Source: a virus
Taxonomy: Duplodnaviria; Heunggongvirae; Uroviricota; Caudoviricetes
Virus record (IMG/VR): IMGVR_UViG_2671181040_000014
Length of the DNA: 31,123 nucleotides
Reading direction: 5' to 3' (one strand)
The position numbers were made by a program, and so were the translations under genes. The notes below the pieces were generated by a model that worked only from the letters and a program-made list of their open reading frames with translations, searched no databases and was not told the DNA's origin. How positions within the stretch are numbered: position 1 is the first letter of the stretch; every line of letters starts with the position of its first letter. Positions 5,725-11,297 of this stretch are shown piece after piece.

Positions 5725-6720
5725 GTGACCGTGAGAGCACTACTGACCCCTGAAATTGCCCCGCGTATGGGGATCGTATTGTTCAGACCAGGTTCAGAGC
5801 TGATGCCCCTGTTTATGCAGGGGCGTGTCCTGCTGGAGCCTGAGCCGGAGCATTATTCATCTTTCGCCAGTGGTGCCGTTCCCGCGGCATCACAACCGCT
5901 GGCGGATGATCCTGTCGTTCGGGCCGTGTTCCGTAATGAGGCAGTGATTCGTCGTGCTGGTGGGGTGGAATGTCTTGAAAGCTGGTTACTTCGTGAAAAA
6001 GGCTGCCAGTGGCCTCATTCCGACTGGCACAGCGAGAACATGACCACAATGCGACACGCGCCGGGCGCAATCCGTCTGTGCTGGCACTGCGATAACCAGT
6101 TGCGCGATCAGTTCACGGAACGGCTGGAATCAATGGCAACGGATAACTGTGCCCGCTGGGTATTGTCTGTTGTGCGTCGGGATCTCGGTTTTGATGATAG
6201 TCACGTTGTGACAATGCCGGAACTGTGCTGGTGGCTGGTTCGTAATGACCTGGCGGATGCCTTACCGGAAAGTGCAGCCCGTAAGGCACTGAGATTACCG
6301 AAGCCTGTTGTGCCGTCTGTCACCCGGGAAAGTGACCTTGTGCCTTCGGTTCCTGCCACCAGCATCATCCAGGATAAGGCGAAAAAGGTGCTGGCGCTGA
6401 AAGTGGATCCGGAGTCGCCGGAGTCTTTTATGTTACGCCCAAAACGTCGCCGCTGGGCTAATGAAAAGTACACGCGCTGGGTTAAGACACAGCCGTGTGC
6501 ATGTTGTGGAAAGCTTGCTGATGATCCCCACCACCTGATAGGCGACGGTCAGGGGGGAATGGGTACAAAAGCGCATGACCTCTTTGTGTTGCCTTTGTGC
6601 AGAAAGCATCACGACGATCTGCATGCGGATACCGTGGCATTTGAAGAAAAGTATGGCTCCCAGTTGGAGCTGATATTTCGTTTTATCGATCGTGCGCTGG
6701 CAATTGGCGTGCTGGCGTAA
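5725..6720 (+). CDS. DUF968-like phage protein (nin-region type, YdfU-like) with a C-terminal Cys/His cluster
   Basis: 331-aa ORF; C-terminal CACCGK...DPHHL...LCRKHHDDLH motif. GTG start at 5725 is uncertain (alternatives 5731 and 5767). Sits directly upstream of the Q-like gene, as ydfU does beside quuQ in the Qin prophage as I recall it. Confidence 0.5.
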   Translation: MTVRALLTPEIAPRMGIVLFRPGSELMPLFMQGRVLLEPEPEHYSSFASGAVPAASQPLADDPVVRAVFRNEAVIRRAGGVECLESWLLREKGCQWPHSDWHSENMTTMRHAPGAIRLCWHCDNQLRDQFTERLESMATDNCARWVLSVVRRDLGFDDSHVVTMPELCWWLVRNDLADALPESAARKALRLPKPVVPSVTRESDLVPSVPATSIIQDKAKKVLALKVDPESPESFMLRPKRRRWANEKYTRWVKTQPCACCGKLADDPHHLIGDGQGGMGTKAHDLFVLPLCRKHHDDLHADTVAFEEKYGSQLELIFRFIDRALAIGVLA

Positions 6721-6733
6721 GTGGAGAACGAGC

Positions 6734-7486
6734 ATGAACCTTGAAGCCTTACCAAAATATTACTCCCCAAAATCTCCAAAATTGAGCGATGACGCACCGG
6801 CGACAGGCTCAGGTGGTTTAACGATTACGGATGTGATGGCTGCGCAGGGGATGGTGCAGTCGAAAGCACCGCTTGGGTTTGCCTTATTCCTGGCAAAAGT
6901 TGGTGTTCAGGATCCTCAGTTTGCGATTGAAGGTCTGCTCAATTACGCGATGGCACTGGATAACCCGACATTGAACAAATTGAGTGAAGAAACCCGGTTA
7001 CAGATCATCCCTTACCTTGTGAATTTTGCCTTTGCTGATTATTCCAGGTCTGCGGCAAGTAAGGCTCGCTGTGAGCATTGTGCTGGTACTGGATTTCATA
7101 ATGTATTGCGCGAAGTGGTGAAACACTCCAGAAGCGGGGAATCTGTTATCAAGGAAGAGTGGGTGAAGGAACTATGTCAGCATTGCCATGGTAAGGGAGA
7201 AGTCAGCACCGCGTGCAGAGGGTGTAAGGGTAAAGGTATTGTCCTGGATGAAAAAAGAACCCGGCTTCATGGCACGCCTGTTTATAAGATTTGTGGGCGT
7301 TGCAGTGGAAACCGGTTTAGCCGTTTACCAACCACACTGGCGCGGCTTCATGTCCAGAAGCTGGTACCAGACCTGACGGATTATCAGTGGTACAAAGGAT
7401 ATGCAGATGTCATTGATAAACTGGTTACAAAGTGCTGGCAGGAGGAAGCTTACGCTGAAGCACAATTGAGAAGGGTGACGAGATAA
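6734..7486 (+). CDS. late-gene antitermination protein Q-like, with four CxxCxGxG zinc-finger repeats
   Basis: 250-aa ORF from the ATG at 6734 (GGAG 7 nt upstream). Contains CEHCAGTG, CQHCHGKG, CRGCKGKG and CGRCSGNR. Followed by a strong intrinsic terminator and then the lysis genes, the lambdoid Q-pR'-tR' layout. Confidence 0.5.
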   Translation: MNLEALPKYYSPKSPKLSDDAPATGSGGLTITDVMAAQGMVQSKAPLGFALFLAKVGVQDPQFAIEGLLNYAMALDNPTLNKLSEETRLQIIPYLVNFAFADYSRSAASKARCEHCAGTGFHNVLREVVKHSRSGESVIKEEWVKELCQHCHGKGEVSTACRGCKGKGIVLDEKRTRLHGTPVYKICGRCSGNRFSRLPTTLARLHVQKLVPDLTDYQWYKGYADVIDKLVTKCWQEEAYAEAQLRRVTR

Positions 7487-7593
7487 GCGATTTTCGCCGA
7501 AGATAACGACATAATACTTGTATTTCTCAAAAAATATGGATAAGATTTTCTCAACGATGGGGCTTGTGTATCTATCGTTGAACAATTTTTACG

Positions 7594-7617
7594 ACCTCGC
7601 TATTGCGAGGTTTTTTT
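7594..7617 (+). terminator. rho-independent terminator (tR'-like) downstream of the Q-like gene
   Basis: Stem ACCTCGC / GCGAGGT with loop TATT, followed by seven T residues (7611-7617) and a second T-run. Confidence 0.65.
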
Positions 7618-7655
7618 ATGGTTTTTTTCTATTCAATCTACATCAAAATCAATGT

Positions 7656-7664
7656 GTTATAATG
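7656..7664 (+). promoter_or_regulatory. candidate extended -10 promoter element (TGtTATAAT) upstream of the 7701 ORF
   Basis: Perfect TATAAT at 7659-7664 with TG at 7656-7657, about 36 nt upstream of the 7701 start. No convincing -35 hexamer. Confidence 0.4.
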
Positions 7665-7700
7665 TTTTCTGTAAAACAACATTAAAAACAGGAGAACATT

Positions 7701-7970
7701 ATGAAACTGACCTCTATCCATCTTGAAATACTACGTCGAGTGAATGAATTGCAGCCAAAGGATTCTAGAATTCAGGCTGCATCATTACCTCATCTCTCAG
7801 CAAAAGAGGTTAACTTTGCTATTTCAGATCTTGCTGATATAGGTTTTATCGATGTTATACGAAGCAAATCTGCCGAAGGTGGATTGATTGCTAATGAGAT
7901 AACGTCAAAAGGTTTTGCTTTTTTGAGTGAGATTGGCGCTGAAAAAAATTCATCGATGAGCACTCATTGA
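7701..7970 (+). CDS. small hypothetical protein (89 aa), possible winged-helix DNA-binding fold; first gene of an AT-rich moron
   Basis: Strong RBS (AGGAGAACATTATG). AT-rich codon usage unlike the flanking phage genes. Helix-rich pattern (LEILRRVNEL ... FAISDLADIGFID) only suggests a wHTH fold. Confidence 0.55.
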   Translation: MKLTSIHLEILRRVNELQPKDSRIQAASLPHLSAKEVNFAISDLADIGFIDVIRSKSAEGGLIANEITSKGFAFLSEIGAEKNSSMSTH

Positions 7971-7984
7971 TTTCTGCTTCAATC

Positions 7985-8002
7985 GGCTGCCAATTGGCAG
8001 CC
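7985..8002. promoter_or_regulatory. perfect 18-bp palindrome GGCTGCCAATTGGCAGCC (possible operator or hairpin)
   Basis: Exact dyad symmetry with no T-run after it, lying between the two moron genes. Confidence 0.45.
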
Positions 8003-8167
8003 TAAACTGTAAAGTGAATTTAAAATCGCCTACAATTGATGCTTAAATTTTGTTCTGTATCATCTGCAGGTTTAGGGATATCACAGTAGCTTTCTGACAA
8101 GAAGAGTTCTTTTCTTCTACCAATGAAGTGGTTATGTTAACCTGCGCTAAATCGAGACTGGTGCGGA

Positions 8168-8974
8168 GTGGAATCGAAAGTGTCATATTTTTACAGAAGC
8201 AAGAATATTTCAGGTGTTTCTATAAATGAAGATAGCTTGATTAGCTTAAGCACGGCAATTGTCGAACGCTGCGTTAAAATGAATGAGCAAGCTCAAAAGG
8301 AAAGTAGGGAAGTTTGTGCTCAATGTGTTTTTTTTATTTTGTTCGATGGTAAGGGGTATAAAGTTGATTCTATCGGTGAGCTTGTGAAATACTTTAGACA
8401 GGCCACTAGGATTGATCAAATAATTTTTACTATTGAAACTTATCAAAGTCGACAGTCTAACAGGATGAATGGATCTTGGATGGAGCTACGAATTGATGAG
8501 AGGAATTCAAATAGCAGCACAATGATTGTAGCATCGGAAGATAATGAGTGGGTTGACTCGTTATGGATTACGATTCAGGATTTACTTAACAAGTGCAAAA
8601 ATAAATTTAGATTTTTTAGAACAGCTTGGACTATGTTAAGTATCCAGATTTCAGGTGTGACAGTTGGCTTTTTGCTTAGCTTATGGACAGCCTCAAAACT
8701 GGCGCCAAAACTATCAATCGATGGTGCATTTGCTTTATCATTTATTTGTATCTTTATTTTGTTTTCGAACTTATGGAGCTTTGCTATTCCATTAATAATT
8801 AAGCTTATCGACTTTTTGTTTCCTAGTGTTAAGTTTGTTATTAATGGTAAAAATTACTTTCACTGGAGTGTCCAGGCTATAATTGGAGCGATTGCCAGTG
8901 CGGTTATATTGTATTTTATTAGCTCCATGTTGCTTTTTGCATTAGAAATGTTAAATAGCATCATTAAGAAATAG
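8168..8974 (+). CDS. hypothetical membrane protein: soluble N-terminal domain (~150 aa) plus three C-terminal hydrophobic helices; second gene of the moron
   Basis: 268-aa ORF in AT-rich DNA. Hydrophobic segments around residues 155-175, 187-215 and 235-262. Start codon uncertain (GTG at 8168 has a weak RBS; first in-frame ATG is at 8279). Confidence 0.5.
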   Translation: MESKVSYFYRSKNISGVSINEDSLISLSTAIVERCVKMNEQAQKESREVCAQCVFFILFDGKGYKVDSIGELVKYFRQATRIDQIIFTIETYQSRQSNRMNGSWMELRIDERNSNSSTMIVASEDNEWVDSLWITIQDLLNKCKNKFRFFRTAWTMLSIQISGVTVGFLLSLWTASKLAPKLSIDGAFALSFICIFILFSNLWSFAIPLIIKLIDFLFPSVKFVINGKNYFHWSVQAIIGAIASAVILYFISSMLLFALEMLNSIIKK

Positions 8975-9082
8975 TTAATGAATTAGTTATAATTACATCA
9001 ATTCTATGGCTGCCAAATGGTGGCCTTTTTTATTCCTCTCATTTCTATTTCTGAGAGGACTCACTGCAATAAGAGGTGGCTA

Positions 9083-9469
9083 ATGTCCGATCCGATTTCC
9101 GGCACAGGGTTAGCTGGTGGAGCCCTAACGGGCGCTAGTATTTATGGACTGCTGACCGGAACTGATTACGGCGTTGTATTTGGCGCATTTGCAGGGGCTG
9201 TATTCTACATAGCAACAGCAGCAGATCTGAGTGCATCGCGCCGACTAGCATATTTTATCGTGTCATATATTGCCGGGATCCTTTGCTCTGGGTTGGTTGG
9301 CTCCAAGCTGGCGAACTTGACCGGATACAGTGATAAACCTCTGGATGCTATTGGTGCCGTAATCGTCTCTGCTTTAGCCGTTAAAATCCTGACGTTCCTG
9401 AATAATCAGGATATCGGCTCGCTGGTGGCGCTCATAACGCGCCGGGGAGGTTCAGGTGGAGCTAAATGA
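9083..9469 (+). CDS. putative holin (multi-pass small membrane protein)
   Basis: ATG at 9083 with RBS AAGAGGTGG. 128 aa with four hydrophobic glycine/alanine-rich segments. First gene of the lysis cassette, upstream of the endolysin. Confidence 0.5.
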   Translation: MSDPISGTGLAGGALTGASIYGLLTGTDYGVVFGAFAGAVFYIATAADLSASRRLAYFIVSYIAGILCSGLVGSKLANLTGYSDKPLDAIGAVIVSALAVKILTFLNNQDIGSLVALITRRGGSGGAK

Positions 9470-9737
9470 CCCGACAGCAACTATAAATGCGCTGTTATGT
9501 GCTTGTGTTGTTATTACTCTGATGTTTTATCGTCGTGGCGACTCCAGACATCGACCGTGGATATCTCGCTTAGCGTGGCTGCTTACGGTCATTTATAGCG
9601 CCGTACCGCTGGCGTATCTGTGCGGTATCTACCCTTATTCATCGTGGGCCACTATCGTGGCCAACATTATTTTCCTGTCCGTGCTGGTCGCCGTCAGAGG
9701 CAATGTGGCACGTCTGGTTGACCATCTGAGGCACTAA
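9456..9737 (+). CDS. putative second holin or antiholin-like membrane protein
   Basis: 93-aa ORF from a GTG with GGGGAGG upstream; about three hydrophobic helices. Its stop overlaps the endolysin start (TAATG). Confidence 0.45.
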   Translation: MELNDPTATINALLCACVVITLMFYRRGDSRHRPWISRLAWLLTVIYSAVPLAYLCGIYPYSSWATIVANIIFLSVLVAVRGNVARLVDHLRH

Positions 9738-10351
9738 TGAACCAATCACAATTTCAGCAGGCGGCTGGTATCAGCGCCGATGTTTCTGCACGCTGGTTTC
9801 CGCACATTGATGCGGCAATGAAAGAGTTTGGTATTACAGCAGTTAATGATCAGGCCATGTTCATTGCACAAGTCGGGCATGAGTCTGCAGGATTTACTTC
9901 GCTGGCAGAGAGTTTTAACTACTCGGTTGAAGGGCTGAAGAAAACCTTTGGTAAGCGTCTGACGCCGTACCAGTGCGAAATGCTGGGGCGTGTCGATGGT
10001 AAACAGGTCGCTCACCAGCCGCAAATAGCCAATCTGGTTTACGGTGACCGCATGGGGAATAACAGCCAGGGTGACGGCTGGAAATATCGCGGTCGTGGCC
10101 TGCTTCAAATTACTGGCCGTGAGAACTACACCAAATGTGGTGCGGCGCTGAAACTTGACCTTGTCAATACACCAGAATTGCTAACGCAGGAGCGACATGC
10201 GGCCCGTTCGGCGGCGTGGTACTTCACGTTACGCGGTTGCTTGATGTATTCGGGTGACGTGGAACGTGTAACGCAGATTATTAACGGCGGACAGAATGGC
10301 ATTAAAGACCGCCGTGAACGTTACGCCAAAGCAAAAGCCGCACTGGTATGA
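9737..10351 (+). CDS. endolysin, glycoside hydrolase family 19 (chitinase-like lysozyme)
   Basis: 204 aa; motifs QVGHESAGF and YRGRGLLQITGRENY match GH19 signature regions as I recall them. Sits between the holin-like genes and the spanins. Confidence 0.8.
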   Translation: MNQSQFQQAAGISADVSARWFPHIDAAMKEFGITAVNDQAMFIAQVGHESAGFTSLAESFNYSVEGLKKTFGKRLTPYQCEMLGRVDGKQVAHQPQIANLVYGDRMGNNSQGDGWKYRGRGLLQITGRENYTKCGAALKLDLVNTPELLTQERHAARSAAWYFTLRGCLMYSGDVERVTQIINGGQNGIKDRRERYAKAKAALV

Positions 10352-10358
10352 GGTCACT

Positions 10359-10628
10359 ATGGGACTTGAAATGATTATCGGCCTGGTTGTTGCTGTGCTG
10401 GCTGCAATTGCAGGTGCTTTTGGTCTGGGTAAATCACGCGGTACAAGTATCGCAGAAACAAAAGCGGACCAGCAACGCACTGAAGAACGTGCAGCTGCTA
10501 CTGAAGCCGTTGCAGAACGTAGGGTAGAGACAACAAAAGGAGCCTGGGATGTACAGCAGACTGTTAATCATCTACCTGATGACGATGTTGACCGTGAGTT
10601 GCGCGAAAACTTTACCCGCAAAACCTGA
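10359..10628 (+). CDS. i-spanin (Rz-like): N-terminal transmembrane helix plus charged coiled-coil region
   Basis: ATG at 10359 with GAGGT RBS. MGLEMIIGLVVAVLAAIAGAFGL membrane anchor, then a Glu/Arg/Ala-rich helical region. Directly follows the endolysin. Confidence 0.6.
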   Translation: MGLEMIIGLVVAVLAAIAGAFGLGKSRGTSIAETKADQQRTEERAAATEAVAERRVETTKGAWDVQQTVNHLPDDDVDRELRENFTRKT

Positions 10629-10767
10629 AGTAACGGACACGGCCTGTGACTGGGTAAGAATCATCTACCTCACAGGTCAGGACATTGAAGTGCTGGATAA
10701 GCTTACGAAGCGGGATATTCTGGCACATAACAAAGCAGTACAGCGCAACTGTATTAGCCAGTTATGA
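10549..10767 (+). CDS. o-spanin (Rz1-like) lipoprotein candidate, overlapping the i-spanin gene out of frame
   Basis: 72-aa ORF with RBS AAAAGGAG. Signal-like N-terminus with a lipobox-like LTVSC. Starts inside the Rz-like gene in another frame and runs past its end. Confidence 0.55.
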   Translation: MYSRLLIIYLMTMLTVSCAKTLPAKPEVTDTACDWVRIIYLTGQDIEVLDKLTKRDILAHNKAVQRNCISQL

Positions 10768-10809: not shown

Positions 10810-11199
10810 TCAATTATCTCCTTTAAAGGAGTCGTATTCACCCCAATCAGCAAACCCAATCGGTCTTTTAGGGGTCTCTAAGCATAAGCGTTTTTTTCGG
10901 ATTAGCAGGACATTTATTTGAGATACATGCTGAACAAGTTCTACAGGACTGCCATCCTCCAGAGTACCAATGAAAGAAATTAATGATGGATTCCAGTAGC
11001 TTATGTCTGTGAAATGAAATTCAATGTTTTTACCAAAGCTAGCTAGTTGTCCTCCTACCTCATACTCTTCTTCAAGTTCACGGTGAAAATCATTTATCCA
11101 GCATATAAGGCGTCTATGAAATTCATTTGCAAGATTGTAGTCCTTTGGAACATATGGCTGTGAGTATTTGAGGAAATCATTCATGTAGTTATTTGTCAT
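10810..11199 (-). CDS. hypothetical protein encoded antisense to the late operon (moron), function unknown
   Basis: AT-rich minus-strand ORF. Preferred start is the third ATG (11199), which has AAGGA 7 nt upstream; the longest ORF reaches 11226. No signal peptide or recognisable motif. Confidence 0.5.
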   Translation of the reverse strand: MTNNYMNDFLKYSQPYVPKDYNLANEFHRRLICWINDFHRELEEEYEVGGQLASFGKNIEFHFTDISYWNPSLISFIGTLEDGSPVELVQHVSQINVLLIRKKRLCLETPKRPIGFADWGEYDSFKGDN

Positions 11200-11297
11200 C
11201 AGGGCGTCCTTTACGAGCATAACCATTGTTACTTAACGGATTGAAACGCTATTAAATAACATGGTTTCTATCATAATTTCTATCCGGAGTTTTCCAT

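Follow-up and report, generated by a model that had tools for sequence, protein, structure and literature searches.

Lambdoid phages carry morons in the interval between the antiterminator gene Q and the lysis genes, stx in Stx phages being one example, and the moron concept itself reportedly comes from Hendrix and colleagues. The window studied here, by which we mean the whole 31,123-nucleotide stretch of viral DNA (Caudoviricetes; IMG/VR record IMGVR_UViG_2671181040_000014), holds at this position an AT-rich insert with two genes for hypothetical proteins. A preliminary description of the sequence had read the insert as a small regulator, a palindrome and a membrane effector forming one regulated unit. 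The question is whether the two genes belong together in this way, and what they may contribute to the prophage that carries them.

The host of the insert is an e14/HK97-like E. coli prophage, and PGAP coordinates for its genes were taken from a 100%-identical record, NZ_CP030939. Downstream of a DUF968 gene (5725-6720), the upstream border of the hotspot is formed by the Q antiterminator gene (6734-7486, plus strand, PGAP start at 6734), which matches PF03589 (E = 4.8e-53) and phrog_127. It is followed on the plus strand by a Q-linked intergenic stretch (7487-7592) that falls within a conserved segment (7480-7616) and is the expected site of the late promoter and the Q-utilisation site; a promoter scan of 7487-7592 listed zero sites, and the late promoter is not placeable with confidence. 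A terminator scan identified a tR'-like intrinsic terminator at 7593-7619 (plus strand), consisting of GACCTCGC-TATT-GCGAGGTT followed by T7, with the stem at 7593-7612 and a predicted RNA fold of -13.7 kcal/mol (z = -5.0). At the other end, the hotspot is bordered by the first holin gene (9083-9469, plus strand, PGAP start), which matches PF16931 (E = 1.5e-34) and phrog_198, and which precedes a second holin gene (9456-9737; PF05449) and, 3' of the holins, a GH19 endolysin gene (9737-10351). Between the terminator and the lysis genes there is, as the preliminary description had stated, about 1.4 kb of AT-rich DNA: the GC content of the insert (approximately 7620-9000) is 0.35, compared with 0.48 in Q and 0.51-0.52 in the lysis genes, and GC3 is 0.27 in the first cargo gene and 0.35 in the second, compared with 0.46-0.52 in the flanking phage genes. 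Both measures lie below those of the flanks, which is the deviant base composition expected of a moron. Rfam and tRNA scans of the Q-holin interval returned no matches and no tRNA genes. A 17-nt repeat (7647-7663 and 8977-8993) was considered as a module boundary and rejected, being too short to tell from chance.

The distribution of this DNA in E. coli characterizes the locus as a variable slot for accessory cargo, in agreement with what had been proposed. The cassette is carried by 41 of 5426 complete E. coli genomes. A Q-proximal segment of 137 bp extending as far as the terminator (7480-7616) is common to 248 further genomes (289 in total), and in these approximately 248 other prophages, which have the same Q type and different downstream cargo, this segment is 83-89% identical. 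Homology with other prophages stops at the tR'-like terminator, the cassette starts directly 3' of it, and homology with other prophages having this holin restarts at approximately 9001-9050. Among the 289 genomes with the Q-proximal region the cassette is therefore present in 41 and absent from the others, the presence/absence pattern of a moron. Cargo does vary between related prophages, as the proposed comparison of the locus was meant to reveal, the same slot being occupied by a 111-aa ORF, by a 67-aa ORF together with a DNA methyltransferase, or by a minus-strand gene of 357 aa. All carrier records listed (30 of the 41 shown) annotate the two ORFs of the cassette as intact, including that of strain XB2, in which the prophage is decayed and Q has been lost. 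Many of the carrier strains come from poultry, and APEC strains are among them.

The first cargo gene lies at 7701-7970 (plus strand) and encodes a protein of 89 aa. Just past the terminator, 38 nt 5' of an ATG that has an AGGAG ribosome-binding site at 7690-7694, there is an extended -10 promoter-like element, TGTTATAAT, at 7655-7663 (plus strand); the element had been recognized before, with coordinates (7656-7664) that were off by one base. Since TGNTATAAT has one match in the 31-kb window and about one is expected by chance, it is the position of the element 5' of the gene, and not its rarity, that points to a promoter. TGGTAAAAT is found at the equivalent place, after a terminator, in both Klebsiella phage loci that encode a homologue. 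The 89-aa protein matches phrog_32916 (E = 3e-61), a PHROG family of unknown function, and aligns over nearly its full length with DUF2513 (E = 2.4e-4; 21.8 bits, under the gathering score of 29.6 bits). The 89-aa family has three members, each of which matches DUF2513 over nearly its full length (E <= 0.1), and further weak profile matches of the window protein are all to winged-helix families (HTH_45, Lrs14 and 2dk8). These profile matches fit a putative distant relative of DUF2513 that is not a member by the Pfam rule; a literature search on DUF2513 found no mention of this family, which has no known function. The AlphaFold single-sequence model of the protein is poor (pLDDT 54). Its homologues are found in two Klebsiella phages only, at 34-37% identity and with a conserved C-terminal motif, and there the gene stands alone between Q and holin, in each case in the order promoter-like element, gene and full terminator. 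The 66-67-aa proteins (MLNQNDMTE...) encoded after Q in related prophages were rejected as equivalents, as they have no detectable homology to the 89-aa protein and travel with the methyltransferase. We predict that this small protein probably binds DNA and acts on its own.

The second cargo gene encodes a predicted inner-membrane protein of an unnamed family. Its full ORF (8168-8974) gives 268 aa from the first GTG, the length originally reported, but PGAP and the conserved N-termini of homologues (MAxY/FxR...) favor the GTG at 8180 as the start, so that the gene most likely spans 8180-8974 (plus strand) and encodes 264 aa. The proposed architecture held: hydropathy and AlphaFold both give a soluble domain (about 145 aa) and, after it, long helices at residues 149-177, 183-213 and 229-263. 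The model is confident (pLDDT 87.2, pTM 0.72) and predicts an alpha+beta domain, putatively cytoplasmic (residues 1-145; 8180-8614), and three membrane helices (residues 149-263; 8624-8968). Structural searches with this model returned no close neighbor, and the neighbors of the N-terminal domain were weak and functionally uninformative. A candidate sigma-70-like site, TTGATG-16-TATCAT (8036-8063, plus strand), is weak, with 9 of 12 consensus matches, and falls outside the stretch that is homologous to a relative at locus L003; the total of promoter sites in the region is no higher than in shuffled sequences, and none is convincing.

The protein belongs to a real family. Among 1.84 billion representatives, we found 230 clusters at 50% identity (E <= 1e-3), 126 of them at E <= 1e-30, nearly all at full length (~260 aa), and the full-length architecture is held down to 22-40% identity across the 230 clusters. 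The motifs RFDxKGY, FSNxW and FPN are conserved in the family; D56, K58, R95 and D106 are invariant or near-invariant in the N-terminal domain, and the membrane domain has the conserved polar residues Q156, S196-N197-x-W199 and Q232. Neither the window protein nor any of 66 family members searched individually matched Pfam, NCBIfam, PADLOC or PDB-sequence profiles; with PADLOC-DB v2.0.0 (5027 models) there was no match at E <= 1 for either cargo protein, and the 66 members gave only single noise-level matches (E >= 0.006, to 2TM). The earlier statement that neither protein has a family signature is thus correct for Pfam, NCBIfam and PADLOC, and both proteins do match PHROG families, in this case phrog_30208, which is of unknown function. 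The family occurs thinly over Proteobacteria and Bacteroidota, and is patchy and rare across phyla. With three family members as queries, megablast and tblastn found no copy in 50,697 phage genomes and tblastn found none in 72,556 plasmids; a scan of species-representative genomes recovered only two loci, and when IMG/VR was scanned further with more distant sub-alignments, one P2-like contig was the only addition. Literature searches returned nothing on either cargo protein. The Gifsy defense protein GiPD474 was considered as a relative and set aside, as it has an ATPase domain and the membrane protein has none.

Whether the two genes are coupled depends in part on the 18-bp perfect palindrome between them, which is present as described. 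This palindrome, GGCTGCCAATTGGCAGCC (7985-8002, plus strand), would form an RNA hairpin with a 7-bp stem and an AAUU loop (hairpin B, -14.9 kcal/mol) that lacks a U tract. A copy with three mismatches lies at 9008-9025, and two such matches are more than chance would give (0.03 expected). This copy is part of an intrinsic terminator identified by the terminator scan between the membrane-protein gene and the holin gene (hairpin B-prime, GGCTGCCAAATGGTGGCC followed by T6, 9008-9031, plus strand), which has a predicted fold of -11.4 kcal/mol and is kept in the homologue loci L003 and L029, while locus L007 has a comparable terminator 3' of its membrane-protein homologue. Moreover, the C3728 prophage, which is without either cargo gene, has a near-identical GGCTGCCAATTGGTGGCC followed by T6 upstream of the same holin; it represents the empty site, in which approximately 12 nt separate the tR'-like hairpin from hairpin B-prime and the holin gene. 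In other copies of the hairpin pairing is preserved via G-U wobble, and since G-U pairs form in RNA and not in duplex DNA, this favors a terminator-type hairpin over an operator. We therefore read the palindrome at 7985-8002 as a terminator-type hairpin that marks a module junction, not as an operator. The membrane-protein gene has its own downstream terminator (hairpin and T6), as morons do; in the window, the hairpin 3' of the 89-aa gene lacks a U tract, and both Klebsiella homologue loci have full terminators there.

The earlier model, in which the 89-aa regulator binds the palindrome and controls the membrane effector within a single exclusion, abortive-infection or toxin module, can draw on the adjacency of the two genes on the same strand, on their joint presence in all 41 E. 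coli genomes that have either of them, and on the combination of a small protein resembling a winged helix with a perfect palindrome between the genes. However, all 41 copies represent a single arrangement (identity of at least 99%), and such co-occurrence is uninformative on a functional link. The 89-aa gene is absent from all loci of non-identical membrane-protein homologues, where the position upstream of the homologue is taken by a methyltransferase gene or by an unrelated sequence, either a 66-aa ORF or a chromosomal gene, and among divergent relatives of either gene there is not a single locus with both. The gap between the genes is 209 nt and contains the strong hairpin B, which speaks against tight operon coupling, and DNA homology with the 77%-identical relative at L003 begins only about 45 nt 5' of the membrane-protein gene. 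As set out above, the palindrome itself repeats the terminator hairpin that occurs both at the empty site and 3' of the membrane-protein gene, with other copies that pair through G-U wobble. Separate homologue loci, together with a hairpin that also occurs without either gene, lead us to conclude that the regulator-palindrome-effector layout is very improbable, and that the locus is, with high probability, a stack of two single-gene morons, each acquired independently, in the interval from the Q terminator to the holin gene.

The neighborhoods of membrane-protein homologues give some indication of function. Among 119 neighboring ORFs (two genes on each side at about 40 loci) we found 101 different Pfam families, none at more than three loci; no partner gene is conserved across these loci, and most metagenomic neighbors are ordinary housekeeping genes. 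Beyond phage methyltransferases and two or three MADS matches, no defense family recurs among the 119 neighbors, and the association with defense islands consequently rests on about six loci and not on a statistic. AbiEi/AbiEii adjoin a homologue twice (L034 and L088), HigB/HigA do so in L016, RelB/YafQ and RhuM in L034, and SocA_Panacea in L089. A cyclase or TIR signal-generating partner is found neither in the window nor in most loci, the exception being a conjugative element (L032) in which a TIR protein is encoded 38 nt downstream of the homologue. Mobile-element neighbors comprise two phage integrases and one transposase. Most homologues stand alone on chromosomes, away from phage genes, and no further prophage contexts emerged when phage hallmark proteins were compared with the metagenomic loci by local tblastn. 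On the P2-like contig, the interval from gpA to the portal gene gpQ contains a homologue with 44% identity; in P2 this interval is the old/tin anti-phage defense hotspot (Rousset et al., 2022; PMC9122126).

Taken together, our best guess, which we hold tentatively, is that the two stacked morons are independent and that the membrane protein is a stand-alone phage-exclusion or abortive-infection effector. The first moron (approximately 7620-8003) would comprise the extended -10 element, the gene for the DUF2513-like, putatively winged-helix protein and the hairpin after it; the second (approximately 8004-9031) would comprise the gene for the predicted inner-membrane protein and its intrinsic terminator. 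We infer that Q antitermination would cause both cargo genes to be read within the late transcript, and that the terminator after each gene would permit expression from the repressed prophage without switching on the holin. The alpha+beta domain, with D56, K58, R95 and D106, may sense an infection cue on the cytoplasmic side, upon which the three-helix domain, with its conserved polar residues, could disturb the inner membrane and cause abortive infection; less likely, the protein might block genome entry and act in superinfection exclusion. A bolder proposal, to which we give rather less credence, is that the 264-aa protein is the founding member of a new family of partner-free anti-phage effectors encoded by single genes, in which a new cytoplasmic alpha+beta sensor is joined to a three-helix domain that either blocks genome entry or causes death or depolarisation of the cell, and which was recruited independently into the lambdoid Q-holin and P2 gpA-gpQ slots.

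Other functions have to be weighed against an exclusion or abortive-infection effector. The most serious of them, though in our view unlikely, is that the membrane protein is a lysogenic-conversion or accessory envelope factor outside defense, acting in stress tolerance, colonisation or addiction, with the 89-aa protein as an unrelated small regulator. Many morons are not defense genes, most homologues have housekeeping neighbors, PADLOC similarity is lacking, and the poultry and APEC origin of many carriers would suit such a role; the family, by contrast, is patchily distributed, repeatedly adjoins Abi and toxin-antitoxin modules, and occurs in prophages at two distinct accessory hotspots, of which one has been tied to defense experimentally. 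That the protein is instead a lysis accessory, such as an antiholin or a holin-timing factor of its own lysis cassette, we regard as quite improbable. All enterobacterial prophage copies directly precede the holin gene on the same strand, this position holds with two unrelated cassettes (holin_8/holin_3_7/GH19 and holin_2_1/lysozyme), and the three membrane helices would be in keeping with such a function. Against this, an intrinsic terminator lies between the membrane-protein gene and the holin gene, 187 of 228 E. coli genomes with the same holin do without the membrane protein, most family members lie away from phage genes, and around the copy in the gpA-gpQ interval no lysis gene was recognized among the scanned neighboring ORFs. 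Nor does the window protein match a holin Pfam or PHROG family, and among the 66 family members a holin Pfam model was matched by one (E = 0.019), with no consistent match. The notion that the AT-rich DNA is junk and that at least one of the ORFs is a non-functional remnant, for which the very few homologues and the poor single-sequence model of the 89-aa protein might be cited, we find scarcely credible: the membrane-protein family keeps its full length over 230 divergent clusters and yields a confident model, and the 89-aa ORF has a strong ribosome-binding site, same-position homologues with a conserved C-terminal motif, and an intact annotation in all E. coli records listed.

Among known systems, the locus resembles lambdoid Q-lysis morons in its slot, from Q and its terminator to the holin, in being AT-rich relative to its flanks, in its presence or absence among relatives, and in having each gene flanked by candidate promoter and terminator elements; it differs in that the cargo is unrelated to characterized moron products, two morons are stacked, and there are no tRNA genes. 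A cytoplasmic domain joined to a few membrane helices with conserved polar residues is also found in CBASS 2TM/Cap15, Pycsar PycTM, type II Thoeris ThsA with TM helices, SLATT and lambda RexB. Effectors of the CBASS, Pycsar and Thoeris type require a partner enzyme that makes the signal, and RexB requires RexA, whereas the membrane-protein gene has no conserved partner and the best HMM match to these systems is at E = 0.006 in a single member. T4 Imm, P22 SieA, HK97 gp15 and Lactococcus AbiZ are, as predicted here, single phage or prophage inner-membrane proteins that act alone. These proteins are small and have little soluble domain, unlike the present family with its conserved 145-aa domain and its spread across phyla outside phages, and neither sequence similarity to them nor a PADLOC match was detected. 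Like the P2 old/tin locus, in which variable cargo occupies a fixed prophage slot, the family has a member exactly between gpA and gpQ; the window copy, in contrast, lies in a lambdoid prophage at another slot and has no sequence relation to Old or Tin. As far as checked, the family was not found among those tested at this hotspot (Rousset et al., 2022; PMC9122126).

Finally, our analysis turns two hypothetical proteins into a concrete candidate: one 0.8-kb gene that lacks a conserved partner, and whose product has a confident structural model and the conserved residues D56, Q156 and N197. Prophage cargo slots have proved a rich source of anti-phage genes. The analysis also suggests corrections to databases, since the PHROG 30208 model is short by 33 conserved N-terminal residues and the family has no Pfam entry despite its approximately 230 clusters. 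If the membrane protein does not act in defense, the locus would add two more uncharacterized morons, which is ordinary for the Q-lysis slot; if it does, the few self-contained membrane effectors would be joined by one with a new fold.

The AT-rich cassette lies in an e14/HK97-like lambdoid prophage of E. coli, and window 7480-9080 is matched at 100% identity in NZ_CP030939 and several further chromosomes. A DUF968 protein comes first in the local gene order, followed by the Q antiterminator (6734-7486; PF03589), an intrinsic terminator (stem 7593-7612 plus a T run), the 89-aa ORF (7701-7970), an 18-bp perfect palindrome (7985-8002), a membrane-protein ORF ending at 8974, a second intrinsic terminator (9008-9031) and the lysis genes, which comprise two holins (PF16931 and PF05449) and a GH19 endolysin. 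The GC content of 7620-9000 is 0.35, compared with 0.48-0.52 in Q and the lysis genes. Gene order and composition were checked, and all elements of the preliminary description are present, with three corrections. The extended -10 element exists but occupies 7655-7663 rather than 7656-7664, and the membrane ORF is real but is unlikely to encode 268 aa, because the PGAP start and the N-termini of homologues (MAxY/FxR at the same point) favour GTG 8180 as the most likely start, giving 264 aa. The profile phrog_30208 (231 positions) is N-terminally truncated, as it starts at an internal Met (window 8279) and omits 33 residues (window 8180-8278) whose conservation in the family extends to members at 34% identity. 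A 17-nt direct repeat at 7647-7663 (AATCAATGTGTTATAAT) and 8977-8993 (AATGAATTAGTTATAAT), both copies of which contain GTTATAAT, is indistinguishable from chance; the second copy lies 14 nt 5' of the 9008-9031 terminator hairpin, so that a promoter there would give only a very short RNA.

The slot between Q and the holin is a genuine cargo hotspot. The end of Q through the terminator (7480-7616) is 83-89% conserved in ~248 other complete E. coli genomes, in which homology to the window ends at the terminator, and in prophages with the same holin homology restarts at ~9001-9050. Only 41 of 5426 genomes carry the cassette, all at ≥99% identity. Alternative cargo includes a 111-aa ORF in ECONIH4, a 67-aa ORF with a DNA methyltransferase in strain 98218 and a 357-aa minus-strand gene in C3728, where a tR'-like hairpin ~12 nt 5' of GGCTGCCAATTGGTGGCC plus T6, followed by the holin, is effectively an empty site. 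Morons in the Q-lysis slot are well known, and the locus adds a fresh example; unannotated cargo here would not surprise a specialist.

Further features were recorded in the window and at related loci. In E. coli XB2 (locus L002, NZ_CP162303 1711729-1723329), the cassette and lysis genes are kept at 99.9% identity, and both cassette ORFs are annotated as intact. The surrounding prophage is heavily decayed: Q and the structural genes are gone, and the cassette has become joined to a frameshifted methyltransferase. In the window, a minus-strand DUF6173 gene (10810-11226; PF19670, E 4e-21) occupies another AT-rich patch (GC 0.38), which separates the lysis genes from the HNH/terminase genes, and looks like one more moron. 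Two overlapping small ORFs after the endolysin (10359-10767; PGAP lengths 89 aa and 60 aa) look like an i-spanin/o-spanin pair, and the frame of the second holds a longer ORF beginning MYSRLLIIYLMTMLTVSCAK with a lipobox-like LTVSC. A metagenomic membrane-family homologue is immediately preceded by an S1-family peptidase gene (L045 1808-2635), whose product shares 41% identity with an S1 peptidase moron on the 3' side of the lysis genes of the E. coli C3728 prophage (L015 6308-7105).

The two cassette genes are not a unit. The preliminary description had coupled a regulator, an operator palindrome and an effector, a model we now regard as highly improbable, given divergent loci that carry each gene without the other and a palindrome of terminator type. 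The closer relatives of the membrane protein (34-79% identity) are also prophage genes between Q and holin. The accompanying Q proteins fall into three different families, and the lysis cassettes are of two unrelated types; the gene preceding these relatives encodes an N6/N4 methyltransferase or is a 66-aa ORF, and in no case is it the 89-aa gene. DNA homology between the window and a 77%-identical relative starts only ~45 nt upstream of GTG 8180. Conversely, in both Klebsiella phages with an 89-aa homologue (ST405-OXA48phi1.2 and vB_VIPKPNMC05), this gene is the only one separating a Q-like antiterminator from the holin, with a terminator, TGGTAAAAT and an AGGAG site on its 5' side and a terminator on its 3' side, which is the textbook moron form. 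The complete linkage of the two genes in E. coli is uninformative, since it reflects a single recent arrangement. As RNA, the palindrome folds into a 7-bp hairpin (-14.9 kcal/mol) that lacks a U tract. Three mismatches distinguish it from a copy 3' of the membrane gene, which is a true terminator, and a near-identical copy lies at the C3728 empty site. These other copies preserve pairing via G-U wobble, an indication of an RNA hairpin rather than a duplex-DNA operator. The simplest history is that terminator-bounded modules were stacked and the hairpin was duplicated where they meet.

The 89-aa protein has essentially no relatives in a 5.8-billion-protein index, and the Klebsiella homologues (79 aa, 34-37% identity, E 8e-5) were found by tblastn. 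All three family members match Pfam DUF2513 over most of their length; the best match (E 2.4e-4) scores 21.8 bits, short of the 29.6-bit gathering score, and the literature searched yielded no paper on DUF2513. Every other weak match is to a winged-helix family (HTH_45, Lrs14 and the RPC39 winged helix 2dk8), and the conserved block AIxxLxxxG[FY]I...ITSKGFxFLxE looks, from the alignment, like a helix-wing-helix pattern. AlphaFold, run on the single sequence, gave no usable model (pLDDT 54). Judged from sequence, this is a putative small winged-helix protein, probably DNA-binding. A 65-73-aa family (MLNQNDMTE...ISEGCCQLILTQLVMAGL; L007 2096-2296, L008 2188-2409, L010 49-246 and L014 4259-4462) shows no detectable homology to it. 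In other prophages a member of this family directly follows Q, and the next gene usually encodes an N6/N4 DNA methyltransferase, which the small protein could control.

The membrane protein belongs to no named family. A profile search run exhaustively over 1.84 billion representatives returned 230 clusters at E ≤ 1e-3, 126 of them at E ≤ 1e-30; nearly all of the clusters are full length (~260 aa). In the soluble domain, D56, K58 and G59 (RFDxKGY), R95, G98 and D106 are invariant or nearly so, as are Q156, G159 and G163 of helix 1, F195-S196-N197-x-W199 of helix 2, and P215, F219, W229 and Q232. With a 26-sequence alignment, AlphaFold (pLDDT 87.2, pTM 0.72) models residues 1-138 as an alpha+beta N-domain, alongside three long helices; the basic cluster KCKNKFRFFRT before helix 1 would place the N-domain in the cytoplasm. 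The window protein and 66 family members share no recurrent Pfam or PADLOC match, NCBIfam and PDB-sequence searches were empty, and the family was not found in 50,697 phage genomes or 72,556 plasmids.

Among 119 ORFs neighbouring homologues at ~40 loci, 101 different Pfam families occur, none more than three times, which indicates a lone gene without a conserved partner. A notable share of the annotated neighbours are conflict or mobility genes, for example HigB/HigA in a Moraxellaceae locus (L016), AbiEi/AbiEii, RelB/YafQ and RhuM (L034), a DUF6088 protein, possibly AbiEi-like, with AbiEii and GNAT (L088), SocA_Panacea (L089), two integrases and one transposase. Against a conflict role, PADLOC scoring of neighbours gave no recurrent defence family beyond phage methyltransferases and two to three MADS matches, and the neighbours at other loci are plainly housekeeping genes. 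In a TraM-bearing, Bacteroidota-like element (L032 7001-8468), a TIR-domain protein (PADLOC TIR effector, E 1.6e-9) follows the homologue by 38 nt, with a further TIR_2 protein downstream; this is the only locus with a plausible signalling partner. Most telling for a conflict role is the only non-enterobacterial viral contig, where a 44%-identical homologue lies between gpA (replication) and gpQ (portal) of a P2-like phage; this is the cos-proximal old/tin slot, which was shown to be a hotspot of anti-phage systems (Rousset et al., 2022, PMC9122126). After this homologue (L092) comes a 258-aa protein (6893-7669) that lacks a Pfam or PADLOC match; it has two hydrophobic segments near the N-terminus, and its K/N/I richness suggests AT-rich cargo. 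It is followed by a small Cys-rich minus-strand protein (7740-8012), read from its sequence as a putative Ogr/Delta-type zinc-finger protein.

We tentatively propose that the membrane protein may be a self-contained inner-membrane conflict effector. The 264-aa protein would be expressed from the prophage, and the terminator after the gene would keep read-through from reaching the holin. An infection cue would be sensed by the conserved cytoplasmic domain, and the polar-lined helices would then compromise the membrane in abortive infection or, less probably, prevent genome entry. A non-defence accessory role is only somewhat less probable than this proposal. That the gene is constantly the last before the holin would suit a role in lysis timing, yet the family is mostly non-phage, a homologue occupies the P2 slot and a terminator intervenes before the holin, which makes such a role improbable. 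The protein resembles CBASS 2TM, PycTM, TM-bearing ThsA and RexB in sensor-plus-membrane layout only, as it has neither their partner gene nor an HMM match. With a confident model, an unrecognised fold and two independent hotspot locations, the membrane protein is a clean single-gene candidate.
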